From an uncultured Candidatus Saccharibacteria bacterium (GTDB lineage: Bacteria > Patescibacteriota > Saccharimonadia > Saccharimonadales > 2-12-FULL-41-12), in assembly GCA_947085855.1 (NCBI GenBank), contig CAMTYB010000001.1, positions 85,788 to 149,787 of the forward strand: 64,000 bases of DNA, written 5' to 3'. This document shows, piece by piece, positions 18,213-63,341 of the stretch. The notes under the pieces were generated by a model that was not told where the DNA came from, searched no databases, and saw only the letters and a program-made list of their open reading frames with translations. The position numbers were made by a program, and so were the translations under genes. Numbering within the stretch: position 1 is the stretch's first letter; the number at the start of each line of letters is the position of its first letter.

Positions 18213-18214
18213 GT

Positions 18215-19912: not shown

Positions 19913-19922
19913 TATTCCTTAT

Positions 19923-19967
19923 CCAAAACAAGCTCGACCAACGGGCATGTTGCCCATTGTCCGAGCT
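19923..19967 (-). terminator. Rho-independent terminator downstream of tRNA-Gln
   Basis: On the - strand: AAGCTCGGACAATGGGCAACATGCCCGTTGGTCGAGCTT followed by GTTTTGG. Confidence 0.6.
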
Positions 19968-49051: not shown

Positions 49052-49684
49052 AGCTTTTTCGTAGAGAATGACCAACTTAGTCCAGACAAACATCACGTAG
49101 AACATAATCGTCACTAACACCAAGCCTGCGAATAAGTATGGCAACGTGCTCAGCGTGAAGTCAGCGTCAACAAATTTACCCATCAACGAAACACACGCCG
49201 GTAATATCAGCCAAAAGGCTACTACTACATATATAAGGTAGGCAAAGGCCATAGACAGCCGTTTTACAGCTTTTAGAAAAATAGACTCGCGTTTAGCTGC
49301 ATCTTGATATTCATTCTGTAAAATTGCTTCATTATGTAAAAAAATAAAAACATTATTAGCATATATATAAGATCGGTAAACTACCACGGCTACCACGGCC
49401 CAGAATAATAGCGTGACCACTTCGGAAGCATAGGGTAGTTGGCTGAGTGTATTGAGCCACTCACTAATTTGCTGGCTCGTCGAACCATATATCGTCTCGG
49501 ATTCATTCAGCGAAGATACGCCAAGCGCATTGATAACCTGACGAGGATATTGACCGACAAACACAACCACGGCAGCAATAAGCGCATATACTGCCATCGG
49601 TAGCGACGTAGCTACAAACGAAGTTAATTTAGAAGTTATTGTCATCTGTTTTTTTGACTTTTTTACAAAAAGCTTGGATTTCAC
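49046..49684 (-). CDS. Integral membrane protein of unknown function
   Basis: 212 aa with about 5 TM helices. The alternative start is ATG 49645. Confidence 0.6.
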   Translation of the reverse strand: MKSKLFVKKSKKQMTITSKLTSFVATSLPMAVYALIAAVVVFVGQYPRQVINALGVSSLNESETIYGSTSQQISEWLNTLSQLPYASEVVTLLFWAVVAVVVYRSYIYANNVFIFLHNEAILQNEYQDAAKRESIFLKAVKRLSMAFAYLIYVVVAFWLILPACVSLMGKFVDADFTLSTLPYLFAGLVLVTIMFYVMFVWTKLVILYEKAL

Positions 49685-49760
49685 TTATGTTTATAATAGA
49701 CTAAAGACAAAATGTAAAGTTAACAATAAAAACTACAAACCAATAAACAAGAAAAAATAT

Positions 49761-51761
49761 ATGAAACTCTTTCTCAGTACACCAAAAAGTACCAAAAACA
49801 AAAAAGTTACTAAAAAATCGACCAAAAGCCGGTCCAAACGAGGCAACAGCAAAAACAGTCTGCGCCAAGTATTAATCGGCAAAGGTCCAAACGTCTTACC
49901 ATATCGCCGCTTTTCTAATCGAAAAGCGGTTTTTGTTGTAATCGGCATGGCTATTGTAGGTATCGCGACCGTGATCTACACCTTGGCAGCGACCACAACC
50001 GTTAATACCACCGTGGAAGCCGAAAATATGACCTGGAACCGGGGCGTTACACAACGCTGGAGCCCTAACAATATCGTCGGCAAAGCACTATACTGGAACG
50101 CCACAGGCACAAGTACGGTGCAACTACCTGTTAACGCCACGAGCTTCTCGGTGTACGTCAAAGGCGATCAGTGTGACGGTGCACCCGTCCTCAAAGCAAC
50201 AATGGGTAATTATGAAATACTCAATAAAGCAGTGACGAGCAAGAACTGGACCAAGTACTCTGTTGCAATTGATCCAAAAATTGCCGTAGCAGGCAAGCAC
50301 AACATTAACCTCAGCTTTGCGAACGATTACGTAAGATACGGAACCTGTGACCGTAATCTATATATAGACAAAATAATCTTCACCGGTGTCAAAGAGATTC
50401 CCGTCGTAAATCCAAAGCCAAGTGAACCAAAACCGTCGACCACACCGGCGCCAAAATATAATCCGAGCGCTCAATACAACATCATTATGATTGGCTGGCG
50501 CCCATATGAGAAGGACTACGCTCAGCTCGCCAACAATAACACTAATCTTGTGTACCGCTCGATTCACAGGACAGCATCTGGCAACAAAGCTAAGTTTGAG
50601 CTGTGGGATAAGATGGGCTACAAGTACTTCAATAATGTCGCCGGATCCGACTGGGCCTCCAGCGGTAAAGGTGGAGCCTGTAAAAATATCCCGCTCGCAT
50701 ACATGGACAAACCTTACAGCGAAGAGCTCATTAAGCGCTCTAACAGTGTCGGCTACTACATGCATGAGATGGCCTCCTTGAATGCGGCTTGTAATGGCTG
50801 GAATTGGGCAAATGCTGCCGAAGGACTCGACTGGGCCAAAATCAATACCTATATGATCCAAGCGCGTGCCCAAAACAAGAAAGTGGTCTGGTCCGAACCA
50901 GCCCAAGGCTGGTCGGCCCTCAACAATAGCCCGTCCTTTAAATATTACGGTCCACAGTGGAAAGATGTCCTCGTTCCAATGTTTGCTACCAACTTCCGTA
51001 CTCCGTCCTTTGACCACGTCCCAGCTGCCCGTTCTGCTGCCGTAACAGCCTCTACAAAGCTTGGAACGCCCGTGGGGGCCAGTGTTCAGTCTTGGTACTT
51101 CCGCGAGGGCTACAACGACCTTACAACTGCTGCTACAGTCAAATTGGCCAACATGGGCCTCGAAGTCGGCGCCAAATACTATCAGATTGAAGGCACCTAC
51201 ACCGATATGGCGTGGGGGACAGACTACATGAACGGCATCTTGGCCTTTAGCAAACAGCTCGGCGCCCAAGCCGTCACTAAACCACAACCGGCACCAGCCA
51301 CCCAAGCTCCGCCTACCGCTATTGCTAAGAAACCGCTTTACCAACTTTGGAATAACGTTGTCAGCGACCATATGTACACATCCGACGCAAGCGAGAAAGC
51401 CCGAATTTTGGCGGCCAAACAGTACGTCGATCAAGGTATCGCCGGCTATCTATACGACAAACAAGCAACTGGCAGCACACCCTTGTATCGAATGTGGGTA
51501 GCCAAGACCACGAATCATTTCTATACGGCCAGCAAACCCGAGCGTGACAACGCTATTAAGTCCGGCGCCACCGACCAAGGTATTGTCGGCTACATCATGA
51601 CCAGCCAAGTCGCTGGCACCTCACCACTCTACAGACTCTACAGCGCGAGCTACCCAGACCACTATTACACCGCCGACAATAATGCCAAGCAAAGCGCCCT
51701 GCAAAGCTTCCGCAAGTACAAAGACGAGGGCAACGTCGGCTACATCTTTAGCAAGCCGTAG
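49761..51761 (+). CDS. Membrane-anchored surface protein with a CBM-like module, a central domain and three C-terminal ~45 aa repeats
   Basis: Lys-rich N-tail followed by the TM AVFVVIGMAIVGIATVIYTLA. VEAENMTW...DRNLYIDKIIF resembles CBM6/35-type modules. Pro-rich linkers are present. The C-terminal repeats follow the pattern PLY(Q/R)(L/M)...(D/N)H(M/F/Y)YT...GxxGY(L/I). Confidence 0.7.
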   Translation: MKLFLSTPKSTKNKKVTKKSTKSRSKRGNSKNSLRQVLIGKGPNVLPYRRFSNRKAVFVVIGMAIVGIATVIYTLAATTTVNTTVEAENMTWNRGVTQRWSPNNIVGKALYWNATGTSTVQLPVNATSFSVYVKGDQCDGAPVLKATMGNYEILNKAVTSKNWTKYSVAIDPKIAVAGKHNINLSFANDYVRYGTCDRNLYIDKIIFTGVKEIPVVNPKPSEPKPSTTPAPKYNPSAQYNIIMIGWRPYEKDYAQLANNNTNLVYRSIHRTASGNKAKFELWDKMGYKYFNNVAGSDWASSGKGGACKNIPLAYMDKPYSEELIKRSNSVGYYMHEMASLNAACNGWNWANAAEGLDWAKINTYMIQARAQNKKVVWSEPAQGWSALNNSPSFKYYGPQWKDVLVPMFATNFRTPSFDHVPAARSAAVTASTKLGTPVGASVQSWYFREGYNDLTTAATVKLANMGLEVGAKYYQIEGTYTDMAWGTDYMNGILAFSKQLGAQAVTKPQPAPATQAPPTAIAKKPLYQLWNNVVSDHMYTSDASEKARILAAKQYVDQGIAGYLYDKQATGSTPLYRMWVAKTTNHFYTASKPERDNAIKSGATDQGIVGYIMTSQVAGTSPLYRLYSASYPDHYYTADNNAKQSALQSFRKYKDEGNVGYIFSKP

Positions 51762-51785
51762 CTTCCGGTCTAAACTCAGCACAGA

Positions 51786-52400
51786 ATGAACACAAGAAAA
51801 ATACTAAAGATCACCGGTATAACTATCGCTAGCATTGTTTTTGTCATAGTTTCTGCAGGCTTTGTAGCCGGTCGATACGCAATTGGTTCTTTCGAGTTTC
51901 CGTGTACCTATCAGAATACTCAGGGCAAAAAAGTGTACAGAAAGATAGAAGACGACTTGAAGGGTATAACTATTCAAGGCAATGGACCAACACATGAGTC
52001 AAAGGATATGAGTATCGATTGCCTCGACGGTAGTCTACATAATCTTATGTCTCTTACATACAGCTACAAGCTATCCTCATCAATAAGTCTTATGGATGCT
52101 GAGGCAGCCGTACTGGCTAACGATCGCCTGAGGAAGGCAGCGACCACGCAGATCACACCCAATCTCGACAGCGGATTTACAGTTCCAGGCTTCAAGGCAA
52201 CTTACAAAGGCGATACCAACCAGGACTACGACGTTTCATACTACTTTAAACAGCCAGTAGTATGTATGAAAACTGATGTACCACCCGAGCAAAGAGTCAA
52301 TCACTGTAAGGACGCGACACTAGTCCAAGACTTCAAATTACTGGAGCAGCCGATCCACGAGATTACAATTAGCCGACCAGAAGTTCCAAAACCAAGATAG
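51786..52400 (+). CDS. Hypothetical membrane-anchored protein
   Basis: N-terminal TM ITGITIASIVFVIVSAGFVAG. No other motif recognised. Confidence 0.55.
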   Translation: MNTRKILKITGITIASIVFVIVSAGFVAGRYAIGSFEFPCTYQNTQGKKVYRKIEDDLKGITIQGNGPTHESKDMSIDCLDGSLHNLMSLTYSYKLSSSISLMDAEAAVLANDRLRKAATTQITPNLDSGFTVPGFKATYKGDTNQDYDVSYYFKQPVVCMKTDVPPEQRVNHCKDATLVQDFKLLEQPIHEITISRPEVPKPR

Positions 52401-52519: not shown

Positions 52520-52594
52520 TCCGGGGTAGCTCAGCGGTAGAGCGGGTGGCTGTTAACCACTAGGTCGAAGGTTCGAATCCTTTCCCCGGAGCCA
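52520..52594 (+). tRNA. tRNA-Asn (anticodon GUU), CCA encoded
   Basis: Manual cloverleaf: acceptor TCCGGGG/CCCCGGA, D arm GCTCAGCGGTAGAGC, anticodon stem GGTGG/CCACT with loop CTGTTAA, T arm GAAGGTTCGAATCCTTT, discriminator G, then CCA. Confidence 0.9.
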
Positions 52595-52601
52595 ATGTAC
52601 T

Positions 52602-52632
52602 CACTTCGCAACAGCGGAGTGTTTTGTTTTTT
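52602..52632 (+). terminator. Rho-independent terminator after tRNA-Asn
   Basis: CACTTCGC-AACA-GCGGAGTG followed by TTTTGTTTTTT. Confidence 0.75.
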
Positions 52633-52867
52633 GCTAGGTTTATATACGAGCACTAAACTCTTGAAGCCTTCTATTGACAGGGTCGAGATTAGTCGAGCTG
52701 ACATACATAAACTACATACAACACACGGCATTCCAGCAGGCATGGTTCGTGAAGCCTGTATTAGAAATGGTGTTTTATTCCCAGAAAGAGAGTATCTCAG
52801 CGCCCAACGAGATCACGCGCAGCGGTCCTAATTCATATCATGTTAATGCAACTGATATAGTAATTGT

Positions 52868-53701
52868 ATGAAAAGCGTGCATTTCTTAAATGGCCAGCTT
52901 GTCACAGAGGACCATTTATTGATATCACCCCGTGACTTGGGATACTCGCGCGGTTATGCCGCCTTTGAGTTTATGATTACCTCAGATGGTCAACCGTTTA
53001 TGATGGACAGGCACATAGACAGGCTCTTTGATTCTTGTCAGACTATCTCGCTGAATGTGCCTTGGTCAAAACAACAGGTCGCCAACTGGGTACAACAAAT
53101 CATTGAGGCAAATGAGCTGCGCAACGAAGATATGGTTATGCGCATTATTATTTCTGGCGGATCATCCGGAACACTTACGCCGGCGAAGACACCTACCATT
53201 GTTATCATCGTCGAAGCCCGAATGACATGTCCTCCGGAAGATTATACGAATGGAGTCCGTATTTTACTCACTGAATTCGATCGATACGAACCCCAGGCTA
53301 AGACAACGAACTATGTGCAGGCAATTCGTGTAATGAATACTGCCCCGCGTGATGTTGATGAAATTATTTACTTCTCCAACAATATGGTGCAAGAAGGCAC
53401 GCGGTGCAATATATTCGCGGTGATAAACGGTATACTAACCACACCTAAAACAAGGATGTTAGAAGGCATCACACGCGGCATCATACTAAAGGATTTAGAA
53501 TTAACCACTCAGACCGAATCTCGAGACTTTACTGTTCAGGAACTACTCAGCGCACCCGAGGTATTTATTACCGCCACAGGCAAAGAAGTCATGCCAGTCA
53601 CTAAAATAAATGACGCGCTCGTAGGGGACGGCGCAGTAGGCGACATTACTAAAGAAGTTATGTCCAAATTCAAGAATTTCTTTGATTCGTACAACCGCTG
53701 A
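52868..53701 (+). CDS. Class IV (fold type IV) PLP-dependent aminotransferase (BCAT/D-amino-acid aminotransferase/ADC lyase family)
   Basis: GYSRGYAAFEFM, the Lys-containing PQAKTTNY, EGTRCNIFAV and MLEGITRG are the characteristic family blocks. Confidence 0.8.
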   Translation: MKSVHFLNGQLVTEDHLLISPRDLGYSRGYAAFEFMITSDGQPFMMDRHIDRLFDSCQTISLNVPWSKQQVANWVQQIIEANELRNEDMVMRIIISGGSSGTLTPAKTPTIVIIVEARMTCPPEDYTNGVRILLTEFDRYEPQAKTTNYVQAIRVMNTAPRDVDEIIYFSNNMVQEGTRCNIFAVINGILTTPKTRMLEGITRGIILKDLELTTQTESRDFTVQELLSAPEVFITATGKEVMPVTKINDALVGDGAVGDITKEVMSKFKNFFDSYNR

Positions 53702-54517
53702 CTAGCTCCACAAAGACAACGTGCCACCTTGCTGCGACATGAAGGTGGTTAAGCCCAATCGTGGTCTGTCTGATTTGATCTCATCGACCTGATGAAAATT
53801 GCGAGTTTTGAATACCACTAAATCACCTTCTGATGGTAGTACCGAAGCATAGGGTGTGTCACCCAAAAAGCCTTCGGTAAATCCGAACGTACCCTTTTCT
53901 ACATAATCACGGTTGTAACGTTCGTCTTCTGGAGTCCAGGGGCGATCATATATGTTTAACTCTCCGCCTGCTGCTGGCATTTGAAGGTACAATACGAGGC
54001 CAAATTGCTCATCTGCATTAGCGACACTCCAGCCAGGAAGTTGTTTTGGAGCATAATCAAAGTGCAACGTACTTTTTGCACCCATAGCCCGAATAAGGCC
54101 TGCAAAGTATCGGGCTTCTGCTAGCTCGGACTCTGTTGCTATTTTTGTATCAAACCCATGCCCAAATAACTCAAGTATTTTACTGATAGGACTCTGGGTG
54201 CCTTCAAATATTTCATCTCGATCTTCCTCGGCTGCCGGCGTTGCGTCAAAGTACTTTTTCTTGCCGTCAGGTTCGTGGCTAAATCCAGTAGCGTTAATGC
54301 CGATTCTTCCTTGTTCGTTTGTTTTGTTGGCATACCAGGCTATTGCTTTGTCTTCCATATTAGCTTTGATTACGGCTAATTCTTGCTCACCCAAAAAGTG
54401 TCCGATTTTAATAGCGGCAATTTCATTCCTTGCTAGCTCGGGTAACAGCGCGCACGCTTCTGCCGAGTTATCTGGACCTAACTGTAATACATCCCATTGA
54501 TTTTCTTTGCTCGCCAT
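53702..54517 (-). CDS. Putative Fe(II)/2-oxoglutarate-dependent oxygenase-like protein
   Basis: The candidate facial triad is H-x-D in TLHFDYA plus a distal His in TRNFHQV. An RLGLTTF stretch follows (R-x-S/T-like 2OG anchor). This is pattern-level evidence only. Confidence 0.5.
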   Translation of the reverse strand: MASKENQWDVLQLGPDNSAEACALLPELARNEIAAIKIGHFLGEQELAVIKANMEDKAIAWYANKTNEQGRIGINATGFSHEPDGKKKYFDATPAAEEDRDEIFEGTQSPISKILELFGHGFDTKIATESELAEARYFAGLIRAMGAKSTLHFDYAPKQLPGWSVANADEQFGLVLYLQMPAAGGELNIYDRPWTPEDERYNRDYVEKGTFGFTEGFLGDTPYASVLPSEGDLVVFKTRNFHQVDEIKSDRPRLGLTTFMSQQGGTLSLWS

Positions 54518-54639
54518 ATACGCTCCAATATAGTTTGATACATAGCCTGAATGATTTTATTGTAACATAATTGCGAATTGTCAAATGACACATTTTCGTA
54601 ATAGCATACGAAATGTGTATTATGATATAAGATAACTCC

Positions 54640-56091
54640 ATGAAAACTGTTAATGTACTCCTCGTTGGCGTTGGCCCCCATGCTAGGCGTATTTATGTTC
54701 CTGCGTTATTTAAGTTTGCATCAGATCTTCCGGTCCGCTTAGTTGCAGCCGTGGACTTAAAACGCCAAAAAGACACCATTGACACATACCTCCAAAAGCA
54801 AGGATATGAACTAGAGATGCTGTATCTTGATTCTTTTGATGCGACAGCCGTCATTCCCGATCACGCCAGAGCGATACTTGACGCGCTAGTCAAGAAGTTT
54901 GATATCCAAGGAGTGGTCATCTCCACGGAACCTACCGTTCATAAGGCATACGCTGAATGGGCCCTCGGCAATGGGCTGAACATTCTGATGGATAAACCTA
55001 TTTCGGCTAGAAAAGCGATTAGTGTTGACCATGCGCAAGCTAGTGGGTTGATCGATGACTATAACGAGCTTTTAGACCTCTACAAAGCACATCAATCTGA
55101 CAAATCAATTCTTTTTTCTATAAACGTCCAAAGACGATACGACCATGGCTTTGACAAGGTTAAAGAATTAATTGCTGAAACCACACAAAAATTTAATGTA
55201 CCAATTACCTCAATGCAAGTTATGCATGCCGATGGTTCATGGAGATTCCCAAAAGAGATACTGACACAAGAATCTCATGGTCTTTCTGATGGTTTTGGGA
55301 AAGTGTCACATAGTGGCTACCATTTGTTCGATATGGCGTGGCAGTTATATAAATCTAGCCTTGTGCCCGAAAAGCAACCGGATGGCATGGAGATTTTTTC
55401 TTCTGCTTTCAATCCCACAGGACTTGATGTTTGCATCAATGAAAACGATTACATTAGGTATTTTGGAGATGACTTTGAGCGAACGGGCCTTTCTTCCCAG
55501 CAATATCTAGAAACGGTTGCCGACTATGGTGAGATGGATTCGTTTAATGTCATCCGACTAATGAAGCAGGGAATTAATATTTGTAATATTTCTGTGAATT
55601 TACTTCACAGCAGTTTTTCAAGACGTTCTTGGGCTACACCAAATACCGATTTTTATAAGGGTAACGGACGAGTAAAACATCAGCAATTTATAATTCAACA
55701 AGGCCCGTTTCAGTGTGTTCAGATTCATAATTACCAATCCAAGCATGAACATGACATAGATAATTCTAAGGAGTTTGGCGTGGGTGGCAATAACCACTTT
55801 GATATTTACGTATTTCGTAATGTTGGCATGTATGGCTACGGCGAGGCCTTCACTAAAATATCTTCTCTAGACCTAGAACAACAAGCTGACGCGCCTGGGC
55901 TTACCATCGAAAATGCCAAATACCGTATTATCCGTGAGTTTATCGAGTTTATGCTCGGAAACATTCCATTACAAGATGCGAGATCCAACATCGACACCCA
56001 TGCAGTACCGGTAAAGATACTGAGTGGCGTATGTCAGTCTAACGCCAATATGCATACCGATCGTAATCCGCTCATTCGTATATCACTATGA
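54640..56091 (+). CDS. Gfo/Idh/MocA-like NAD(P)-dependent oxidoreductase with an extended C-terminal domain
   Basis: N-terminal Rossmann pattern VNVLLVGVGPHARRIYVPAL. TEPTVHKAYAEWALGNGLNILMDKP matches the family EKP block. Confidence 0.65.
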   Translation: MKTVNVLLVGVGPHARRIYVPALFKFASDLPVRLVAAVDLKRQKDTIDTYLQKQGYELEMLYLDSFDATAVIPDHARAILDALVKKFDIQGVVISTEPTVHKAYAEWALGNGLNILMDKPISARKAISVDHAQASGLIDDYNELLDLYKAHQSDKSILFSINVQRRYDHGFDKVKELIAETTQKFNVPITSMQVMHADGSWRFPKEILTQESHGLSDGFGKVSHSGYHLFDMAWQLYKSSLVPEKQPDGMEIFSSAFNPTGLDVCINENDYIRYFGDDFERTGLSSQQYLETVADYGEMDSFNVIRLMKQGINICNISVNLLHSSFSRRSWATPNTDFYKGNGRVKHQQFIIQQGPFQCVQIHNYQSKHEHDIDNSKEFGVGGNNHFDIYVFRNVGMYGYGEAFTKISSLDLEQQADAPGLTIENAKYRIIREFIEFMLGNIPLQDARSNIDTHAVPVKILSGVCQSNANMHTDRNPLIRISL

Positions 56092-56738
56092 GCGGAACAA
56101 TATACTTGATGGGCGGCGGAGAACTTAGAGACGGTGATACCCAGCTAATTGACGAGGACATACTGTCTTGGGCACCAAAAGGTTCTACATTTGTTTTCTT
56201 TGGGTTCGCTTCACAAGATAGTACCGACTATGCCGACACCGTCAGGTCTGTATATGGAAACAGATACACCGTAGTAGTGCCTACAGAAGCAAAAGGGAGA
56301 GATTTTGCGATTGACGCTATAAAGTCGGCTGCTATTATCTACTTTGGCGGCGGTAATACTGAGGAATTGTTGCGACTATTTGCCGACTGGGGCCTTCTAG
56401 AGTATTTACGGGTTGCCGTTGGTCGAGGGGTGCATATTGCGGGAATGAGCGCAGGCGCACAGGCGTTATCTACGTGGTATGTGCATGAGGGTAACGATAT
56501 TTTTGAACTTCGTAAAGGTTGGGATATTGTCCCCGTTGGTGTCCTAGTACATGCTGATCGGACTTCGTTCGGTATGGCCAAGATACTATGGTCTGAACAT
56601 GGTATGACCGGCAAATATCCCTTTGTTGCAATTGGAGAAAGTGCCGCATGGCGCATGGGTACCTTAGAGGATACAAAGGTAGGTTTGGGTAATATTTGGA
56701 CAATAGCTGTCAGTGCTAAAGGGCCTAATCGAAGCTAA
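56088..56738 (+). CDS. Peptidase S51/type-1 glutamine-amidotransferase-like protein (dipeptidase E/cyanophycinase family)
   Basis: IYLMGGGE, IYFGGGNTEELL and the nucleophile block IAGMSAGAQ. The start overlaps the upstream stop (ATGA). Confidence 0.7.
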   Translation: MSGTIYLMGGGELRDGDTQLIDEDILSWAPKGSTFVFFGFASQDSTDYADTVRSVYGNRYTVVVPTEAKGRDFAIDAIKSAAIIYFGGGNTEELLRLFADWGLLEYLRVAVGRGVHIAGMSAGAQALSTWYVHEGNDIFELRKGWDIVPVGVLVHADRTSFGMAKILWSEHGMTGKYPFVAIGESAAWRMGTLEDTKVGLGNIWTIAVSAKGPNRS

Positions 56739-56813
56739 GCGCACAACAGCTTAGTATAGTTACCTATTCGTGATATTATAGAATAACTTCATCATATTTA
56801 CTAGTTTAGGTTT

Positions 56814-57485
56814 ATGAAGATTGAATTTGTAATGAGTGAAGATATAAATAACATATTTCGAAATGTTAAAGCTGAAACGCAGTGCCCATTTGCTAAGTCA
56901 GCTACTATCACATTTGCACGTTCGATTGAAGCTGAATTTACTGTACCCGAAACCGCACAGCAACTTTATGAAGATATCGCCACGTATGTCCAAGAAGGTA
57001 TTGCCACAGCACCAGATGGCATAGCAGTAGCTCTGCCCAATAATGTTATTGGAGATGATTTTATATCCTTAACTTCAGGCTTTAAATCTCTTTACCACGC
57101 TCTAAAAATAGAAGATGGATCTAACGAAGAAGCTATAGCTACCGAGAACATTGATGATTCGGACTGGCAGCTAACGATAGTCGGACAACGTTTATTTACG
57201 ATTGTTTTTAGCTCATTATATCCCGCGGACAATCCTCGTCATATCCATGAAGCCAACACTACATTTGTATTTTTTCAACCTGTACAAAGTTTTAACACAC
57301 GAATACCATTCGATAAGGACAGCGCAGAATTCAAGAGACTGAAAGCGAACATTCGAGCTCGTTTTACTAAAGCGGGACTGGCGTACGATGGAGCCATCAA
57401 TGACGACCCACGTGAAGCCGCAAAATATCTGTCACCACCCCATTTGGGCATGCAAGCAGTACAGTGGTGGAAAGGCGATAGTTAA
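56814..57485 (+). CDS. YqcI/YcgG-family protein
   Basis: N-terminal CPFAK motif. The C-terminal block LFTIVFSSLYPADNPRHIHEANTTFVFFQPVQSF resembles the family's conserved core. Recognition is by memory of the family pattern only. Confidence 0.6.
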   Translation: MKIEFVMSEDINNIFRNVKAETQCPFAKSATITFARSIEAEFTVPETAQQLYEDIATYVQEGIATAPDGIAVALPNNVIGDDFISLTSGFKSLYHALKIEDGSNEEAIATENIDDSDWQLTIVGQRLFTIVFSSLYPADNPRHIHEANTTFVFFQPVQSFNTRIPFDKDSAEFKRLKANIRARFTKAGLAYDGAINDDPREAAKYLSPPHLGMQAVQWWKGDS

Positions 57486-57488
57486 TAC

Positions 57489-58589
57489 ATGCAATCTATA
57501 GAATCTTCGTTTCTTGAATATCATCATGATAATGGTTTCGTGACACATGAATCTTTTCCGCTCGTCATTGATGATCCCACGGTTTTGTTTACCAATGCCA
57601 CCATTACTCCGTTCAAGCCGATGTTTGCAGGTGAGACGGAATTTTCTAATTTTGCCCTCGTTCAAAAATGCCTTCGCCTAGGTGGTACTGGCGGCAATGT
57701 TAACACGGCTCGTTTGAATACAAATTACACCTCACTGTTCAATATGCTTGGCAGCGGTTTCTTTAATGTGCATCACGATAAAGCGGTAGACTATTTTGTT
57801 GATATGCTAGGTGCTGTTGGACTGGAGCGGCGCAATTTACTCTTCTCGTCAATTGGTGGTCATGCCTTGGACGCATCGTTAAAATCTTCGTCGCTCGATC
57901 CGTCTCAGATTCGTAGTATGGATCCCGAAACATTGCAGCACGAGTGGAGCTTTGGGGAGGGCGACCTACACGGAATCGGGATAATAGCATGGTTTAATGC
58001 AGATGGTTACGATCAGACTACAGCGCTATCTGACTGCTTGCAGATCGGCAGGATCGTGCATATTGATGGCGTTTCAGAAAATGGATCGGTAAACCGGTTT
58101 GAACATACTGCCTTTGACGTGGGCTTGGGCTTGGGCAGGGTTGAACAAGCTCTGACTGGCGAAAGTGAATACGCCATGATGCCATTGAGAAAACTCTCGG
58201 AGCAATTTAAACGCTCCTTTGAAAACATCTCTGACGAGGACGCTCATTACATGGCAAATCTTTGTCGCATAACTGACGAGCTGACTGCGGAAGGCGTAAT
58301 GCCAGGCAATAAAAAGCATGCTTATGTACTTAGGAAAGTTATTCGCTCGCTTATTGAGGAAGCTTGGTTGCAGTCCGGAAGTTTTGTGGACGTCGAAGAC
58401 GTATTAGGCCATTTCATTGAAGAGGCTCAGTTTAAACCTAGTGTGAAGGCAGCGCTATCAAGCGAACAAGATGCTTTGCGTCGCATACTCTCTCAAGTAG
58501 AAGATAGGCGTAAAAAGCACCCTGATATGACGCTCAGCGACTTACATTCAACCTTTGGCATTAAGCCCAGTCTGCTTAGTCTACTGTAA
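57489..58589 (+). CDS. Truncated, divergent alanyl-tRNA synthetase paralogue (catalytic core only; no editing or C-Ala domains)
   Basis: It aligns by eye to the AlaRS N terminus. FLEYHHDNGFVTHESFPLVIDDPTVLFTNATITPFKPMFAGE corresponds to F..FF..KGH....SSL.P..DPTLLFTNAGMNQFK. QKCLRLGG corresponds to QRCVRAGG, FNMLGSGFF to FEMLGNFSFG and DVGLGLGRVEQAL to DTGMGLERI. ELTAEGVMPGNKKHAYVLRKVIR corresponds to [22 protein letters not shown]. It is 366 aa versus about 870 aa for a full AlaRS. Confidence 0.8.
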   Translation: MQSIESSFLEYHHDNGFVTHESFPLVIDDPTVLFTNATITPFKPMFAGETEFSNFALVQKCLRLGGTGGNVNTARLNTNYTSLFNMLGSGFFNVHHDKAVDYFVDMLGAVGLERRNLLFSSIGGHALDASLKSSSLDPSQIRSMDPETLQHEWSFGEGDLHGIGIIAWFNADGYDQTTALSDCLQIGRIVHIDGVSENGSVNRFEHTAFDVGLGLGRVEQALTGESEYAMMPLRKLSEQFKRSFENISDEDAHYMANLCRITDELTAEGVMPGNKKHAYVLRKVIRSLIEEAWLQSGSFVDVEDVLGHFIEEAQFKPSVKAALSSEQDALRRILSQVEDRRKKHPDMTLSDLHSTFGIKPSLLSLL

Positions 58590-59202
58590 GCTCCGTCGCA
58601 ATGCGGCCCACAACTCGTGCGAGTTCATTGGCGTACGGCTGCTCGCCAATAAAGTGTGCTGCGCCAGCTACTTCAATCAGTTCCGCGTTAGCGATAACGC
58701 TTGCAAGTTGACCACAACGAGCAACTAGGTACGGATGCAGTTCGCACTCTTTTTCACCAAATAATATAGTTGTAGGTATCCTTAGATCATTAACCAACGA
58801 AGAAGCATCCAGCGCAGAAAAAAACTTTAGCTCCTGCACTCGTTTTTGACCAATACGCTGGGCAAGTGCAGGGTCTAAATTTGTATTAATGTCCTCTGAG
58901 AACAGAGCCGAAGGAGAGCACAGCACCAAATGTCGCAAAGGAATTTGATCTACAATACTCAGAGCCGCCAAGGCACCCAAGGAATGCCCGATTAGGATTC
59001 CATTGTATTCACAGTGCTGCAATTGCTCAAGTGCACGCTGGCCAAAATCCTGCACACTCTGTTCTCCCCAGCCGCTGGTAACGCCACTGAGCAGCGCCCC
59101 TTGTGCTGCCATTGCATGTTTTAACTCATCCAAATCAGGATCGGTAAATGTCTTATCAGGGCTGTAACCAGGTACCAAAAAAGCTGCTACCATATCTGCC
59201 AT
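58576..59202 (-). CDS. Small serine hydrolase (alpha/beta fold, YdeN/RBBP9-like size)
   Basis: GHSLGALAALS nucleophile elbow and a C-terminal GAAHF block containing His. Its 3' end overlaps the AlaRS-like gene by 14 nt (convergent). Confidence 0.7.
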   Translation of the reverse strand: MADMVAAFLVPGYSPDKTFTDPDLDELKHAMAAQGALLSGVTSGWGEQSVQDFGQRALEQLQHCEYNGILIGHSLGALAALSIVDQIPLRHLVLCSPSALFSEDINTNLDPALAQRIGQKRVQELKFFSALDASSLVNDLRIPTTILFGEKECELHPYLVARCGQLASVIANAELIEVAGAAHFIGEQPYANELARVVGRIATELTVD

Positions 59203-59317
59203 ACTTTACTGTACATATAAATATTTTGCGACTAAAATATCACGCTTACAGTAGAGTGAGTGAAATTAGAATTTATTGGTACTTCGTAGTTGCTGAGTGC
59301 GTCCACTAGTGGGAGCC

Positions 59318-59359
59318 ATGAGGCTAGATGGTCAAGTTTACTTGATCGCCTAGCCTCAT
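59318..59359. other. Perfect 10-bp inverted repeat ATGAGGCTAG / CTAGCCTCAT with a nested inner stem (TCAAG/CTTGA)
   Basis: Direct reading. It lies in the 370-nt non-coding stretch at the island end. Confidence 0.6.
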
Positions 59360-59400
59360 TTGCGTTTCTGGGAAGGATGAGAACCGCTCTGCGTAGCAGT

Positions 59401-59491
59401 AGGTTCGGCGTAGCGAAAGCTCTCGCAGAAATTTACTTCGAGAAAACTTGAGCGGAGGAGGCGACAGACAATACCCTTTCCCCGTAGCCAA
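59401..59491 (+). repeat. Island-boundary repeat, copy C; its end duplicates the 3' end of tRNA-Asn
   Basis: AGGTTCGGCG (59401-59410) is identical to the reverse complement of the 10-mer in copies A and B. GCGGAGGAGGCGAC is close to GCGGAGAAGCGAC in A and B. It ends cctttccccgtagccaa (59475-59491), matching 16 of 17 nt of 52579-52595. Confidence 0.75.
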
Positions 59492-59507
59492 GATAAAGCA
59501 GATAAAG

Positions 59508-59538
59508 TCAGAACTGAATTAACTGTTCTGGCTTTTGT
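59508..59538 (+). terminator. Rho-independent terminator
   Basis: CAGAAC-TGAATTAACT-GTTCTG followed by GCTTTTGT, directly after repeat copy C. Confidence 0.65.
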
Positions 59539-59587
59539 ATGTGCAGACTGTTAATGAAACTCCCGGTGGAGTTTGCGTTTATGCTCT

Positions 59588-59596
59588 TGCTATACT
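59588..59596 (+). promoter_or_regulatory. Extended -10 element TGCTATACT, 6 nt upstream of ATG 59603
   Basis: Direct reading. A leaderless start is implied. Confidence 0.4.
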
Positions 59597-59602
59597 TTAG
59601 TC

Positions 59603-59815
59603 ATGAAAGCCGGCGTATACAGACACAAACGACACCCCCAGGACTTATATCTTTTTATTGGTCTCGCCAGACATCATGAAACAAATGAAGAGTTCATTGT
59701 ATATGTTCCACTTAGAATAGAAAAAGATTGGGCGGGTACAGCACGAATGGCCTTGCGGACTGTTGAAGATTTTAATGAAACCTTCGAGTATGTAGCTGAG
59801 CGTCTTCCTGAATAA
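59603..59815 (+). CDS. DUF1653-like small protein
   Basis: MKAGVYRHKRHPQDLYLFIGLARHHETNEEFIVYVPL pattern (YRHYKG...Y.V..L..H.ET.E..V.Y). Confidence 0.65.
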   Translation: MKAGVYRHKRHPQDLYLFIGLARHHETNEEFIVYVPLRIEKDWAGTARMALRTVEDFNETFEYVAERLPE

Positions 59816-59845
59816 CTCTAAAACATAGCATGATAAAATTGCCAC

Positions 59846-60343
59846 ATGACAAAATTCACGCAAAAATATACCATTGTCCAATTCCTCGAAGAGATTGCAG
59901 ATGGTTACGAGTATTCCTCGAGCAACTGGCCGCTACACACTACTATTGCTGACACTTTTGCAGTTGATTGGGACAAGGATAATTCGCTTGCTAAGCTAGA
60001 AGCATGGCTGACTAAGCAAAGGGCGGTCACCACAAAAGCTGCAAACTTTGAGTTCTTTGGGCCCGAGAAGCAAACAAAAGTAACATTGCTTGAAATTAAT
60101 AAAGAACTTTTGCAACTTCATAATAGTGTCGTGGATCTACTCAAGAATGATGGGGCAGTTTTTAATGACCCCCAATTTACGGGAACAGGCTTTTTGCCAC
60201 ACGTAACAGTGCAGTCTCACGCACATTTAAAAAAAGGTGATTTAGTTACTTTTACGGGCTTGTCCTTGATAGATATGTTTCCAAATAGCGATCCCTACCA
60301 GCGCAAGGTGCTCAAAACCATGATGCTTCTTAATAGTTATTGA
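59846..60343 (+). CDS. 2H phosphoesterase superfamily protein (LigT/cyclic phosphodiesterase-like)
   Basis: Two H-x-T/S-x motifs at the expected spacing: PLHTTIA and PHVTVQS. Confidence 0.65.
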   Translation: MTKFTQKYTIVQFLEEIADGYEYSSSNWPLHTTIADTFAVDWDKDNSLAKLEAWLTKQRAVTTKAANFEFFGPEKQTKVTLLEINKELLQLHNSVVDLLKNDGAVFNDPQFTGTGFLPHVTVQSHAHLKKGDLVTFTGLSLIDMFPNSDPYQRKVLKTMMLLNSY

Positions 60344-60465
60344 TGCATAAGAAACCAAGAACTCAAGATACTCGAGGCATTTGCTGGCAATCTCTCAAAG
60401 TTCGTCAACTAAGGTGAGCGAAGCTGCCTGAGCAGCTTGCGGTCTTTATTTGGTATAGTAAACAC

Positions 60466-60897
60466 GTGCACATAAATCCCAAGCTAGAAGACGTGGACGA
60501 CTCGTTGTATCGTGTTGCGGTACGCGCGTTAGTTTTACACGATGACAAAATACTAGCCGTCAAAGAAGTTGACAGCCAGCAATGGTCAATACCTGGCGGC
60601 GGAGTCGATTACGGAGAAGACTTAAAAGCCGGTCTATTGCGGGAAATTGAAGAAGAACTTGGCATCTCCGCTGAATCTGTTTCGTCAGATTTTCAAATTA
60701 TTCACTATGATATCGGAAACATTGTTAATGGCGTTCCACGTATGAACATATTCTTTACAGTTTCCGTGCCAGAGGATCGCATCAAGACAACGTCTCACGT
60801 CGAAGAGTGGGGCTGGTTTACCAGAGATGAGTTCATGGAACTAGACACAAACCCTTCTCACGATAAAGCCGAACTTATTGAAGTTATCTTCAGCTAA
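60466..60897 (+). CDS. NUDIX hydrolase
   Basis: Nudix box GGGVDYGEDLKAGLLREIEEELGI. GTG start 6 nt after GGTATAGT. Confidence 0.85.
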   Translation: MHINPKLEDVDDSLYRVAVRALVLHDDKILAVKEVDSQQWSIPGGGVDYGEDLKAGLLREIEEELGISAESVSSDFQIIHYDIGNIVNGVPRMNIFFTVSVPEDRIKTTSHVEEWGWFTRDEFMELDTNPSHDKAELIEVIFS

Positions 60898-60945
60898 CAG
60901 ATGTCTCTTTTGATTTATTGTAATTTATATGTTTTAATTTGAGAT

Positions 60946-61686
60946 ATGCCAACCTATTTAACAGGTGAAACAGTCCTTGAAGCTCCGATCAATAATGTGA
61001 TCGTTTATCCTTACTGCTCTAACGTAGGCCTAGATCATGAAGGTGAATTAGAGACTTACTTAAGCATTATGTCTACTATGTCAATTGATGCAGGCATAGA
61101 ATTAGGCCTTCAGGATCAGAGCAGAAAGCTTACACTACCTGGCGAAACACCCTTTGAAGACCTGGCTAACACGACTGACTTGATGGGGGCACGAGCTACA
61201 CATGCAGGTATTGCGGAGGGAGCACTCGACAGACTTTACAGCCTAAATGATGGGCGCCCCCTTAACAATACGTACCTGCAGTCACAAGGTGTCAAAGAGC
61301 ATAACGACGATAAAAATGAAGATTTAGACAGCTCTGTTGTTGTTGCACTTGATTACCATATAGCAAGAGTATGTGGAGCAATGGCAGCTTTCCAAGCCGC
61401 TCCTCGATTCGCTGTAACTGTGGAGTCAATTCTACAGGCGCGTGGCATACACGATTACGATAAATACTTGCCAGTTATTGATGGTTTGCGACGTAGCGAG
61501 AAACTTGCAAAATTAATGACACCTAAAATCCTGGGCTTAGACAAGGGTCAAATACCTAATTTTGCAGTCGCTCGCAAGGGAGCGCGCATAGTCGACATCA
61601 CAGAAGAACCCAACGGTACGTTTGTCTTAGAGAATGATTTTGCCTCTGCAAAACGTGCTCGCCTAGAAGCTAAAGCAGTCATTTAA
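60946..61686 (+). CDS. Hypothetical protein
   Basis: 246 aa ORF with no motif recognised. Confidence 0.55.
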   Translation: MPTYLTGETVLEAPINNVIVYPYCSNVGLDHEGELETYLSIMSTMSIDAGIELGLQDQSRKLTLPGETPFEDLANTTDLMGARATHAGIAEGALDRLYSLNDGRPLNNTYLQSQGVKEHNDDKNEDLDSSVVVALDYHIARVCGAMAAFQAAPRFAVTVESILQARGIHDYDKYLPVIDGLRRSEKLAKLMTPKILGLDKGQIPNFAVARKGARIVDITEEPNGTFVLENDFASAKRARLEAKAVI

Positions 61687-61754
61687 ATAAACTGGTTATA
61701 CGACTTTTGTAGAGATGGTTTATTATTACCATAGACATAAGGAGTATTAGCAAA

Positions 61755-61994
61755 ATGGGTTTTCTTATCGTTCTTGGAGTCGCGTTATGGATATTTATCG
61801 CCTTTTGGCCAGCCATACTAGCAAAAAACAAGGGTTACAGTTTTATTTTATTCCTCGTATTATCGTGGTTCGTCTCATTTCTTATTACGCTGCTTGCAGT
61901 AGCATTATTGCGAGACAAAACAATGACCGAGGCAGACAGAAAAGCTGACCGGGAAGCCGAAGCTGCTCTTGCCAAAGAAGAAAAACAAGCTTAA
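61755..61994 (+). CDS. Small two-TM membrane protein
   Basis: 79 aa with SD AAGGAG upstream. Two hydrophobic helices and a charged C-terminal tail. Confidence 0.6.
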   Translation: MGFLIVLGVALWIFIAFWPAILAKNKGYSFILFLVLSWFVSFLITLLAVALLRDKTMTEADRKADREAEAALAKEEKQA

Positions 61995-62092
61995 ATACTT
62001 TAGATGACACCTGTTTGCTAAAACGACAGGAACGCGCAGTTTAACCCTGTGGTCTCATTCGATGCCAACCTCCCAGAATACTGGGCATAGAT

Positions 62093-62404
62093 TTACTTCG
62101 ACTTAGCTTGTCTACCAAGCACCCATTTAACAGATGGACTGATAGATTTATCGGTGCGATGAATGCAACCAATCCAGCAGCAGGGGCGGCGTTTACCTTC
62201 TTTTAGTTCTTTAACAGTTCTTTTGATGTGATCTGTTCGTGTCTTTGGCTGCTTAACAGTAATGTTCCAGCAAATCCACTCATTACGCGCCAGTGGAGTC
62301 AGGCCTTCCCATTTTTCTAGAGATGCCTTGTTGGCTACCAAGGCTTTTTTCAAGTCAGCAGGCATCTCATGTACAGTGCCGCCAGTTACTTGTGCGTTCG
62401 TCAT
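62093..62404 (-). CDS. YdeI/OmpD-associated family protein
   Basis: PADLKKALVANKASLEKWEGLTPLARNEWICWNITVKQPKTRTDHIKRTVKELKEGKRRPCCW is the typical family pattern. Confidence 0.7.
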   Translation of the reverse strand: MTNAQVTGGTVHEMPADLKKALVANKASLEKWEGLTPLARNEWICWNITVKQPKTRTDHIKRTVKELKEGKRRPCCWIGCIHRTDKSISPSVKWVLGRQAKSK

Positions 62405-62485
62405 GTATTTATTTTACCTCAGTGACCTCTCGTGAGCCAGTGTCGCATCTATACAAAGTCTTGTTTTTATGTTATTTTATTCTTA

Positions 62486-62749
62486 ATGAATAATCCGCAA
62501 GAAGTTGCACCGGAATACTTGGTAGGTAAGCCAACTCGCTACACAGCTCGAGCAATGGGAACATTCTTGGCTGGAACCGCAGTTTTAATGGAAGTATCTG
62601 GGATACAGGAGTTAATGGCCGGCAATCACGAAGCAGGCCAAGAGCTTATTGTTCAAGGCATAACACCGACAGGACTGGTAGCTGGATTCCTCATCTGGGC
62701 CTCATTTGCCAAGAAGTCAAACTCCACACAGAATAACCAAGATCAATAA
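62486..62749 (+). CDS. Small membrane protein, hypothetical
   Basis: The start was set at MNNPQEV. Two hydrophobic segments. Confidence 0.5.
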   Translation: MNNPQEVAPEYLVGKPTRYTARAMGTFLAGTAVLMEVSGIQELMAGNHEAGQELIVQGITPTGLVAGFLIWASFAKKSNSTQNNQDQ

Positions 62750-62750
62750 T

Positions 62751-63266
62751 ATGTTAATAATACCAAACGCTCACGTCATAGATTTTAATCCTGAAGTTCG
62801 CTTGCCGCTCATGGAGGCAGAGGCGCTGAATCAGCAGCGTCAGACTTCAGAGCAAGTCTACACCTCGATCGATCATCGGGATCACGATCACTACACGCAA
62901 AAGGCCGAACGAACACGAAGACAGCGCAACTTAAAAGTAGCCGGCTTTGCCGGATATTACGTCACAGTGGTTGGGGAATATACACTTGATATGGCCATTC
63001 TGACCCGATATCCCGCAGCGACTATAGCAGTCGGCATGACTGCTGGCTGGTTTTTTGGCGGTGTAGGCGAAGATAATCAACAGATAAAAGACCAGGAAGA
63101 CAAGGCTGTGCGATGCGCAGCCTACGAAGTAGAGAACGCCGAGTACGACAAAAGAGACCCTTCGGAATGGGCAGTAGAGTGCCTCGAAAGTGCCGGAGTT
63201 ACCGCCCATGAAGTACTTCATCCGATTATTGCTGCCGCCCAAAAAGAACAACCAATTCAGTCTTAA
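62751..63266 (+). CDS. Hypothetical protein
   Basis: The start was set at MLIIPNAH, 1 nt after the upstream stop. One central hydrophobic region. Confidence 0.5.
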   Translation: MLIIPNAHVIDFNPEVRLPLMEAEALNQQRQTSEQVYTSIDHRDHDHYTQKAERTRRQRNLKVAGFAGYYVTVVGEYTLDMAILTRYPAATIAVGMTAGWFFGGVGEDNQQIKDQEDKAVRCAAYEVENAEYDKRDPSEWAVECLESAGVTAHEVLHPIIAAAQKEQPIQS

Positions 63267-63279
63267 ATCAATAATACGA

Positions 63280-63304
63280 GCCGACAGACGTGTCGGCTTT
63301 TGTT
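63280..63304 (+). terminator. Rho-independent terminator
   Basis: GCCGACA-GACG-TGTCGGC followed by TTTTGTT. Confidence 0.8.
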
Positions 63305-63341
63305 ATGATTAAGGGACAAGAACATAGCGGAGGGATGGCAT

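Follow-up and report, generated by a model that had tools for sequence, protein, structure and literature searches.

We have found that a tRNA-Asn(GTT) gene in a Saccharimonadia genome, within the candidate phyla radiation (CPR), is followed by a genomic island (positions 52595-59490) that very probably arose by site-specific recombination into the 3' end of the tRNA gene. The island lies in a stretch of 64 kb (contig CAMTYB010000001.1), which we refer to as the window and to which coordinates refer unless another locus is named. A preliminary description of the window had proposed an AT-rich island at this place, bounded by direct repeats of the tRNA end and filled with enzyme genes but with no recombinase. 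As it stands in the window, the island is non-autonomous and decaying: if it is not a fossil, it can be moved only in trans or by accretion. We class it as a non-autonomous representative of a family of tRNA-targeting islands in CPR bacteria that are driven by large serine recombinases (LSRs).

Repeats, terminators and a structured arm at the island ends

The ends of the island (Table 1) are marked by two copies of a 17-nucleotide (nt) core, CCTTTCCCCGGAGCCAA on the left and CCTTTCCCCGTAGCCAA on the right, which lie on the same strand, agree at 16 of 17 positions, and are the sole matches to the 17-mer in the window when up to two or three mismatches are allowed, so that the repeat stands where it had first been placed. 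Shuffles of the sequence yield 0.01 expected matches at up to two mismatches. For a 17-mer with at most one mismatch, on both strands of 64 kb, the analytic expectation is 3.9e-4, which is of the same order as the rough figure of 1e-4 given previously. The tRNA-Gln gene of the window has a tRNA-end array of its own and is not a clean negative control for chance repeats; the analytic expectation and the shuffles serve instead. Contigs from ERR4904396 (L001) and from ERR3478710 (L002 and L094) match the window at 100% identity, and both repeats are present in them, including the G-to-T mismatch. Because two independent assemblies carry both repeats an assembly artefact is excluded, and the worry that the repeat might be missing from such assemblies is met by its presence in L001 and L094.

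Behind each core copy there is a terminator hairpin of its own, as the preliminary description held, with folding energies of -11.6 kcal/mol on the left and -18.2 kcal/mol on the right. The right hairpin has a fold z of -3.9 (within 59492-59545) and was missed by our terminator scanner solely owing to its 10-nt loop, and the left one is similar to terminators found behind tRNA-Asn or behind repeat copies in other lineages (L022, L064). The right repeat and its flank (59479-59549) align at 87.5% over 72 nt with the 3' end of tRNA-Asn and the downstream terminator in L005, and the same terminator, AAAGTCAGAACTG...GTTCTGACTTTTTGTAT, stands directly after tRNA-Asn in L016, L032, L052 and L064. The T-arm of the L016 tRNA-Asn is identical to the variant in the window, and in L073 a homologue of a gene from the right flank of the window (LigT) comes directly after the tRNA. 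Since the terminator beyond the right repeat is of the type that directly follows tRNA-Asn in several relatives, the island separates the tRNA from that terminator. Homology between the window and L003 extends from 52650 to 59319, which is nearly exactly the interval between the repeats.

The right core is preceded by a structured arm, and such arms, of about 95-110 nt, are conserved directly to the left of the distal repeats across the element family. Their parts are a 5' hairpin of variable length (GAAC...GTTC), an invariant GGTTCGG, and a central hairpin with compensatory changes. Over 17 copies, pairing holds in 91.5% of cells as against 79% in shuffles, none of 500 of which was as high, and 20-47% with slid partners; the covariation is significant, with double changes in 11 of the 18 pairs. 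A model of the arm built without the window (R1) matches 59380-59490 at 41.4 bits, its sole match in 64 kb, and a model of the motif from which the repeat was omitted (R2) matches 59380-59464 at 46.5 bits (E 3.5e-12). The tRNA gene alone gives no score with the arm models, so the match is not produced by the repeat alone. At 41 bits the window arm scores below the training copies (77-105) and inside the range of copies that were not used for training (24-60). Rfam returned no family for the arm, with STnc70 and RNAI as sub-threshold matches only.

Such an arrangement would result if the 16-17-nt tRNA core (attB) recombined with an identical core carried by a circular element (attP). Integration would regenerate the tRNA with an element-borne terminator at the left junction (attL), would leave the structured arm of the element, about 95 nt long, and a copy of the core at the right junction (attR), and would move the terminator type that in several relatives is right behind tRNA-Asn to a place beyond attR. 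The enzyme, on the evidence of relatives, would be an LSR, whose gene usually lies on the reverse strand against attL and runs through the core into the tRNA. The island might at present move only if an LSR acted on it in trans or if it accreted with an incoming element, as has been proposed for cis-mobilisable elements (CIMEs), for the pseudo-SCC elements related to the staphylococcal cassette chromosome (SCC), and for Dehalococcoides islands that have no integration module.

The tRNA-Asn site in relatives and its serine recombinases

For comparison we took, from GTDB species genomes, the 80 loci closest by smpB (best SmpB identity 78%). Their labels are Saccharimonadia or Saccharibacteria in nearly every case; the three that are assigned to other phyla are probably mis-binned. 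tRNA-Asn lies downstream of smpB on the same strand in 51 of these 80 related species, and the synteny to the left of the tRNA (GT2, a GH42-like gene, then smpB) is kept. Among the 36-37 species-level relatives with at least 3-5 kb of sequence after the tRNA, a single one, L072, has the gene cluster of the island at this locus, and the cluster is thus absent from about 97% of them. The comparison with relatives for an empty site, which had been suggested at the outset, therefore turned out as the island would have it, with the terminator of the attR flank standing straight after the tRNA in L016 and L005. L072 (DATLRC010000012.1, 10551-20468) is the sole smpB-sampled species with the cluster; it is binned as 'Dormiibacterota', has a Saccharimonadia-like synteny from smpB to tRNA-Asn and is probably mis-binned, and an IS30-like transposase (HTH_38 and rve) and an unknown gene of 381 amino acids (aa) lie between its tRNA and the cluster.

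The history of the cluster can be read from a codon comparison of the window with L003, L005 and L072, in which identical codons were counted among identical residues. For SmpB the amino acid identity is 61-66% and identical codons make up 39-44%, which is about saturation. In the aminotransferase, the Fe(II)/2-oxoglutarate (Fe/2OG) oxygenase, the GFO-type oxidoreductase, the S51 peptidase and the YqcI-family protein the corresponding values are 72-89% and 60-76%, and in the protein that resembles alanyl-tRNA synthetase (AlaRS) and the hydrolase they are 64-73% and 44-52%. The contrast between 60-76% identical codons in the cluster and 39-44% in smpB points to horizontal transfer, and makes the left block of the cluster much younger than the split between the hosts. 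Nucleotide identity follows the same division, with 82-85% from the aminotransferase to the YqcI gene and 67-72% in the AlaRS-like and hydrolase genes, and indicates that the cluster is a mosaic. A conserved order, namely aminotransferase (+), Fe/2OG oxygenase (-), GFO-type oxidoreductase (+), S51 peptidase (+) and AlaRS-like protein (+), is kept in Saccharimonadales (L003, L004/L005, L072), in a Levybacteria metagenome-assembled genome (MAG; L006) and in a further genome, L009. These comparisons indicate that the cluster is exchanged horizontally among Saccharimonadia and that its five-gene core is conserved across the CPR. The attL/attR geometry first proposed from the repeats is thus borne out by the terminator homology with L005, by the empty sites that are the rule among relatives, by the arm at the right end and by the signal at synonymous sites.

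Copies of the tRNA end are also found at other loci. The last 16 nt of the tRNA recur one to three times in 17 of 53 other loci with tRNA-Asn, making arrays of two to four; every additional copy lies on the same strand, with none on the opposite one, the majority are exact, and chance would give about 0.5. Identity mostly begins at the same position of the tRNA (16-18 nt), as it does in the window, and most copies are then followed by a terminator-like hairpin. The inserts measure from about 150 bp to 7.7 kb and carry genes for Fic, a ClpB-like ATPase, a histidine kinase, DUF2975, a phosphoesterase and S51 peptidase, and several genomes have cargo-less units of about 150-190 bp that consist of terminator, arm and core. 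The distribution of the copies indicates that the 3' end of tRNA-Asn is an integration hotspot throughout the lineage.

LSR genes stand at the tRNA side of this hotspot. The 7.7-kb insert of L017 has an exact repeat and the arm at its far end and an LSR next to the tRNA, encoded by two overlapping open reading frames (ORFs) that jointly hold Resolvase, Recombinase and Zn_ribbon domains and are probably the product of a frameshift. Full-length LSRs of 499-521 aa are found in L039, L067 and L086, on the reverse strand against tRNA-Asn and extending 35-42 nt into it, and the LSR C-terminus ...WLGRPDSNRQPRS (L017, L039, L067) corresponds to the tRNA end translated in antisense. LSR relatives that were sampled independently of smpB, from a marine metagenome and a Nomurabacteria MAG (L095, L097, L099), have the same overlap with tRNA-Asn, and in all LSR genes abut and overlap tRNA-Asn in at least seven loci. 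As the reading frame overlaps the tRNA, the C-terminus of the LSR would differ between the integrated and the excised state, which has likewise been noted for dsiB at ssrA in Dehalococcoides (PMC3146451). In a census of 102 ORFs lying within 6 kb after tRNA-Asn in 51 relatives, LSR domains were the most frequent Pfam families, and tyrosine integrase (Phage_integrase) was not among the families with at least two members. The positions of these genes indicate that a clade of LSRs uses this tRNA-Asn site in relatives.

Both tRNAs of the window carry tRNA-end arrays. Straight after tRNA-Gln come a terminator, a GGTTCGGCG-type motif and a degenerate copy of the 3' end (about 19836-19852), followed by a 2.2-kb stretch of cargo with ORFs at 18215-19822 (a 535-aa beta-helix protein) and 17778-18212; the distal part of the array holds a copy with three mismatches (17644-17659), a terminator with the motif, and a copy with one mismatch, CCCTCCGCCCCACCCA (17497-17512). 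The motif-only model ranks 17531-17601 (-) in this array second in the window, weakly (10.6 bits, E 0.15). In the Levybacteria MAG (L006, 12489-12992) the cluster adjoins tRNA-His, whose 3'-terminal 16-17 nt recur exactly 430 bp away and bound a gene for a GIY-YIG nuclease.

We also note several features of the elements found at the tRNA-Asn site. In L048 (11410-14312) the LSR downstream of smpB adjoins a Phage_CRI gene, for a rolling-circle replication initiator of inovirus type, which suggests that some elements at the site are able to replicate. Cargo with the look of defence genes is present in L095 (2193-6777; an N6_N4 methyltransferase and a ResIII helicase) and in L099 (4474-7228; an OLD-family TOPRIM ATPase and a UvrD-like helicase, Gabija-like). 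L095 and L099 share the module HTH_17, unknown gene, SpoVG-like gene, unknown gene of about 375 aa and LSR, in which the small HTH_17/MerR-type gene is a possible excisionase; a search over 10 kb did not reach the far ends of these two LSR elements. A second long hairpin, GACCAAGCAGAGAAAA...AGACC..GGTTCC.AGACC...CTTCTCTCCTTGGTCA, recurs in the first 70 nt or so after tRNA-Asn or its copies in L014, L023, L047, L054, L055, L072, L083, L085 and L087, and matches no Rfam family at threshold (STnc70 reaches 23.6 bits, below the gathering score). There is, lastly, a second class of distal copy (L023 15949-15975, L085 7759-7785, L087 11714-11740, L013 about 12720-12748), which shares 27 nt including the whole T-arm in the first three of these and about 19 nt in L013; a tRNA-like stem-loop, AAAGCGAGCCTAAAATTTAGGTGG, stands ahead of these copies instead of the GGTTCGG arm, and they bound Fic and ClpB-like cargo.

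Weighing site-specific integration against other explanations

The island in the window is incomplete in two respects. In L003 and L072 the cluster opens with an intact 430-aa AlaRS paralogue (300 bits against alaS), and since only the last 63 codons of this first cargo gene remain in the window, the end next to the tRNA has been truncated. There is, moreover, no recombinase in the island, and it is for this reason that we file it as a non-autonomous derivative. The suggestion that it is a fossil or is mobilised in trans fits well with a window that holds no recombinase while an LSR clade occupies the same site in relatives.

Several observations weigh against site-specific integration as we have described it, or limit what can be concluded from it. 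The absence of a recombinase extends to every ORF of at least 150 aa in the 64 kb of the window, and the proposed search for a recombinase acting in trans gave none: in a non-exhaustive profile search, none of the 120 best of 959 LSR relatives was on the 817,656-bp contig that carries proteins of the window. No excised or empty form came to light either, as neither conspecific contigs nor metagenome contigs of the Joint Genome Institute (JGI) contain an empty-site or circular-junction sequence. For these searches the junctions were predicted to join ...GGTTCGAATCCTTTCCCCGGAGCCA to AGATAAAGCAG... in attB and ...GACAGACAATACCCTTTCCCCGKAGCCA to ATGTACTCAC... in attP, and the exact attB and attP patterns, TCGAATCCTTTCCCCGGAGCCAAGATAAAG and CAATACCCTTTCCCCGKAGCCAATGTACTC, had no match in the JGI metagenome contigs. 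Exact look-ups of the flanking proteins returned the filled arrangement only, in two samples, and recent mobility is thus not shown by the junction searches. In the three other genomes that bear the cluster there is no complete attL/attR pair around it: no repeat with up to three mismatches was found around the cluster in L003-L005, and in L003 and L005 decayed core copies are seen upstream of it only, by eye and by model. Both terminator types follow the tRNA and the repeat copies, depending on the lineage, so that lineage comparison cannot prove which of the two terminators of the island is native. The low GC of the island runs on for about 3-4 kb past attR, and composition does not, therefore, delimit the island; the right flank may itself be older accessory DNA. 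The chemistry of the cargo, finally, is read from homology at the level of families, with the YqcI-family protein below the Pfam cut-off.

The alternative that survives best is that homologous recombination brought an att-flanked island from another member of the Saccharimonadia, with tRNA-Asn and the core and terminator as anchors, in which case the att structure would have been inherited from the donor. We consider this unlikely as an account of the whole, and a reasonable alternative for the arrival of the att-flanked unit as the last step. The mosaic identity described above (82-85% as against 67-72%) means that homologous exchange inside the cluster has occurred, the attL-side terminator is like the terminators of other lineages, and the window is without a recombinase; in addition, Saccharibacteria encode DNA-uptake machinery. 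The homology available on the right, however, would be just the 16 nt of the core and a terminator of about 50 nt, and the right core has the host's own variant of the T-stem (CCTTT, shared only with L016 and L035), which fits a crossover in the core. Site-specific integration would still have been needed originally, so that homologous recombination competes with it over the last transfer step only.

It is less probable still, and to our minds doubtful, that the arm and the tRNA-end copy are a functional small RNA gene, for instance a mimic of the tRNA 3' end, and that the cluster is ordinary variable DNA with no att site. Such a gene would account for the strong covariation of the central hairpin, for the invariant GGTTCGG, which can pair with CCGGAGCC of the core, for the commonness of cargo-less units of about 150-190 bp, and for the related unit after tRNA-Gln. 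It would leave aside the diverse and patchy cargo between tRNA and copies, the LSR genes exactly at the tRNA-side junction, the absence of the island from most relatives together with the signal of horizontal transfer, and the arm at the far end of the LSR-bearing island in L017, and an arm with a structure of this kind is in any case compatible with att function.

We regard as very improbable a tyrosine-integrase island or prophage remnant from which the integrase has since been deleted. Textbook tyrosine-integrase elements are recognised by just such a direct repeat of a tRNA 3' end, and with no recombinase in the window the type cannot be read directly; against this, the large serine type is the only recurrent recombinase in the census of 102 ORFs, it is LSR genes that abut and overlap the tRNA in at least seven loci, and there are no phage genes in the island. 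That the repeat is due to chance or to misassembly, with the seven genes inherited vertically, might be argued from its being short (17 nt) and imperfect and from a compositional shift that is modest and reaches beyond the interval, but is refuted by the expectation of 3.9e-4, the agreement of two independent assemblies, the detection of the arm independently of the repeat, the homology of the terminator beyond attR to the sequence after tRNA-Asn in relatives, the absence of the cluster from about 97% of relatives at the locus, and the evidence from synonymous sites.

Site-specific integration by an LSR into the end of an RNA gene has precedents. The islands at ssrA in Dehalococcoides use a DsiB/CcrB-type LSR, and many of them have no integration module and are read as cis-mobilisable (PMC3146451). 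They resemble the islands described here in being stacked in tandem behind a single-copy small-RNA gene, in their direct repeats of about 20 bp of its 3' end, in the position of the LSR on the reverse strand against attL with an ORF that overlaps the RNA gene (in the CPR this is seen in relatives), in a conserved motif just upstream of each repeat, and in the small genomes of their hosts. They differ in that their target is tmRNA and their phylum another, whereas in the CPR the target is tRNA-Asn and probably also tRNA-Gln and tRNA-His, and in that they have a 15-bp motif where the CPR islands have an arm of about 95 nt whose hairpins co-vary; in the CPR, units without cargo (about 150-190 bp) are common, and no DsiA-like small recombinase was seen there. 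SCCmec and pseudo-SCC, which use CcrAB or CcrC at rlmH, likewise show LSR-mediated insertion into the 3' end of a conserved gene, repeats of 15-18 bp and composite arrays, and pseudo-SCC elements are recombinase-less, repeat-bounded cassettes movable in trans (cf. the discussion in PMC3146451); the target gene, host and cargo are different, and the LSRs of the CPR share Pfam domains with Ccr proteins. CIMEs (concept in PMC3146451) also have attL and attR, no genes for recombination or transfer, and a site that autonomous elements use, but they were defined for streptococcal integrative and conjugative elements with tyrosine integrases and conjugation, whereas here the recombinase is of the serine type and no conjugation genes were seen. 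Tyrosine-integrase islands and prophages at tRNA genes share the target in the tRNA 3' end, the regenerated tRNA, the direct repeat at the far end and the accessory cargo, and differ in the recombinase, which at this site is of the serine type and in this copy is missing. Integron arrays with their attC sites, lastly, are alike in having promoter-less or single-gene units and sites whose structure is more conserved than their sequence, but here there is neither an IntI tyrosine recombinase nor attI, and the repeats derive from a tRNA end, with a recombinase of the serine type.

It is tempting to go further, and to see in the tRNA-end copies and the co-varying arms of about 95 nt a cassette system in the CPR, with units of the form terminator, cargo, structured arm and 16-nt tRNA core stacked at several tRNAs (Asn, probably Gln, and His in Levybacteria) and shuffled in trans by LSRs that recognise a folded or extended att arm. 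We offer this as a speculation and think it improbable on present evidence. Were it true, the system would be an integron-like platform for gene capture by serine recombinases, a place at which ultra-small genomes swap metabolic and defence genes, and the island in the window would be one cassette.

The genomes of CPR bacteria, or Patescibacteria, are tiny, and the usual account credits these bacteria with few mobile elements and little biosynthetic capacity. Our literature searches found no description of the hotspot or of the cluster in the CPR. A hotspot with its own LSR clade, att arrays and a previously undescribed arm provides a concrete mechanism for gene flow between episymbionts, with cargo that spans defence genes and an eight-gene enzyme pathway, and the tRNA core with the arm offers a simple sequence handle for mapping accessory genomes in metagenomes. 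A cluster that is restricted to the CPR, is exchanged horizontally and has two AlaRS paralogues recalls the tRNA-dependent aminoacylation of antibiotic biosynthesis; it is a hint that a small aminoacylated metabolite is made by some Saccharibacteria and may matter for the interaction with their hosts.

Cargo genes and the surrounding DNA

Table 1. Positions of the island features, the cargo genes and related sites. Coordinates are those of the window except in the last row.
Feature	Position	Strand	Remarks
tRNA-Gln(TTG)	19968-20042	-	with its own tRNA-end array on the same strand, 17497-20042
tRNA-Asn(GTT)	52520..52594	+	ARAGORN; Rfam tRNA 71 bits; 3' end is the integration target (attB; attL when occupied)
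Left core copy, 17 nt (attL)	52579..52595	+	last 16 nt of the tRNA and one base; CCTTTCCCCGGAGCCAA
Terminator hairpin on island side of attL (P' arm)	52602..52632	+	scanner match 52602-52621 and T-run; -11.6 kcal/mol
Remnant of AlaRS paralogue, last 63 codons	52640..52828	+	tblastn 73% and 63% aa identity to residues 368-430 of the 430-aa gene of L003/L072
Class IV (BCAT/D-amino-acid type) pyridoxal-phosphate aminotransferase	52868..53701	+	Aminotran_4 134 bits; NCBIfam BCAT/DAAT subfamilies below equivalog cut-offs
Fe(II)/2-oxoglutarate oxygenase, WelO5-like fold	53702..54517	-	Pfam WelO5 65.6 bits; HFD motif and second His in translation
GFO/Idh/MocA-type NAD(P) oxidoreductase, 483 aa	54640..56091	+	Pfam GFO_IDH_MocA; weak iolG match
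Peptidase S51 (PepE/cyanophycinase family)	56088..56738	+	Pfam 65 bits; NCBIfam weak
YqcI/YcgG-family protein (accessory)	56814..57485	+	Pfam 24.5 bits, below cut-off of 27; L003 orthologue with PF08892
Truncated, degenerate AlaRS-like protein, 366 aa	57489..58589	+	tRNA-synt_2c 85 bits; alaS 74 bits against cut-off of 457; homologue of the aminoacylation domain only
Alpha/beta-hydrolase (accessory)	58576..59202	-	Pfam Abhydrolase_6 and Hydrolase_4; orthologue in L003
Conserved structured arm (P arm)	59380..59474	+	precedes distal tRNA-end copies in the element family; model R1 41.4 bits
Right core copy, 17 nt (attR)	59475..59491	+	CCTTTCCCCGTAGCCAA; one mismatch, G to T
Terminator of tRNA-Asn type beyond attR (B' side; probably native)	59492..59545	+	-18.2 kcal/mol; L005 homology
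LSR ORFs overlapping tRNA-Asn in relatives	L017 10996-12066; L039 10550-12106; L067 11108-12607; L086 18715-20280; L095 10001-11551; L099 10001-11536	opposite to tRNA	30-42 nt overlap

Between the repeats there are seven ORFs, all with matches to enzyme families in Pfam (weakly in the case of YqcI_YcgG), and an eighth gene is present as a remnant only. Pfam thus agrees with the preliminary description both in making all seven enzymes and in finding no recombinase or phage gene among them. That they form one coherent pathway is true of the five-gene core, which is conserved across the CPR; the YqcI protein, the hydrolase and the truncated second AlaRS paralogue are accessory. Accessory genes vary between genomes, with YqcI and the hydrolase in the window and L003, the 430-aa AlaRS paralogue in L003 and L072, an FAD monooxygenase in L004/L005, APH in L006 and a GCS2-like ligase in L009.

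The GFO-type oxidoreductase is the most conserved cargo gene, with 86-89% aa identity to L003, L005 and L072. The WelO5-like enzyme was considered as a halogenase, and this is ruled out by its metal motif, which is H-x-D and not H-x-G/A and thus of the hydroxylase type. Proteins of the YqcI/YcgG family are heme-dependent guanidine N-hydroxylases (PMC12866846), a description that we follow in preference to a reading of the family as KtzT-like formers of N-N bonds. A sequence search of the cargo against the PDB gave remote matches to AlaRS (canonical only) and WelO5, and nothing for the GFO or YqcI proteins.

The AlaRS-like protein has 122 homologues, all the named ones among them from the CPR. 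In comparison with a bacterial AlaRS (9jdn), GGKHNDLE is replaced by GGTGGNVN, FFEMLGN by LFNMLGS, EIWNLVF by QIGRIVH and GLER by GLGR, and the protein is thus without the canonical residues for ATP binding and alanine activation. In ascamycin biosynthesis, a small molecule receives alanine from Ala-tRNA through AcmF (PMC12945691), and the cluster family described here combines an AlaRS homologue (430 aa), a degenerate AlaRS-like protein (366 aa) and an alpha/beta-hydrolase, which parallel AcmD, AcmF and AcmE in that order (PMC12945691). Unlike that system, it has no nucleoside-sulfamate genes, its partners are an aminotransferase, an Fe/2OG hydroxylase, a GFO-type oxidoreductase and an S51 peptidase, and the AcmD-like gene is truncated in the window; the likeness to AcmF is one of description. 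It is possible, and we put it forward tentatively, that the cluster makes a tailored metabolite derived from an amino acid and aminoacylated in a tRNA-dependent manner. With low confidence, we propose that the degenerate AlaRS-like protein might take the role of AcmF and that the hydrolase or the S51 peptidase might remove or process the aminoacyl group. A functional link in which the AlaRS-like enzyme would use the adjacent tRNA-Asn was considered and rejected, the cluster lying away from tRNA-Asn in L006 and L009.

The AT-richness ascribed to the island is real but modest. GC is 0.441 in the island and 0.481 in positions 1-52519, and GC at third codon positions (GC3) averages 0.409 in its genes as against 0.478 +/- 0.045 in 37 other genes (Mann-Whitney p = 9e-4). 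The part of the claim that did not hold is that the deviation ends with the island, as the right flank at 59.5-64 kb is equally low (GC 0.441, GC3 0.422). Nor are the atp and pgi/zwf genes, with which the island had been contrasted as its flanks, immediate neighbours; atp, pgi and zwf lie at 23.7-27.6 and 37.5-43.7 kb.

The right flank itself (59492-64000, and L001 beyond) contains LigT-like, NUDIX, unknown and OmdA genes, which are patchy after tRNA-Asn in relatives, and is probably older accessory DNA with decayed att copies. On the other side of the tRNA, the stretch from smpB to tRNA-Asn (49046-52400) holds ORFs of 212 aa (-), 695 aa with DUF5648 and CBM60 (+), and 204 aa (+). The distance from smpB to tRNA-Asn is merely 70-1500 bp in most relatives, and the 212-aa ORF has a low GC of 0.408; this stretch looks like another variable insertion, upstream of tRNA-Asn.

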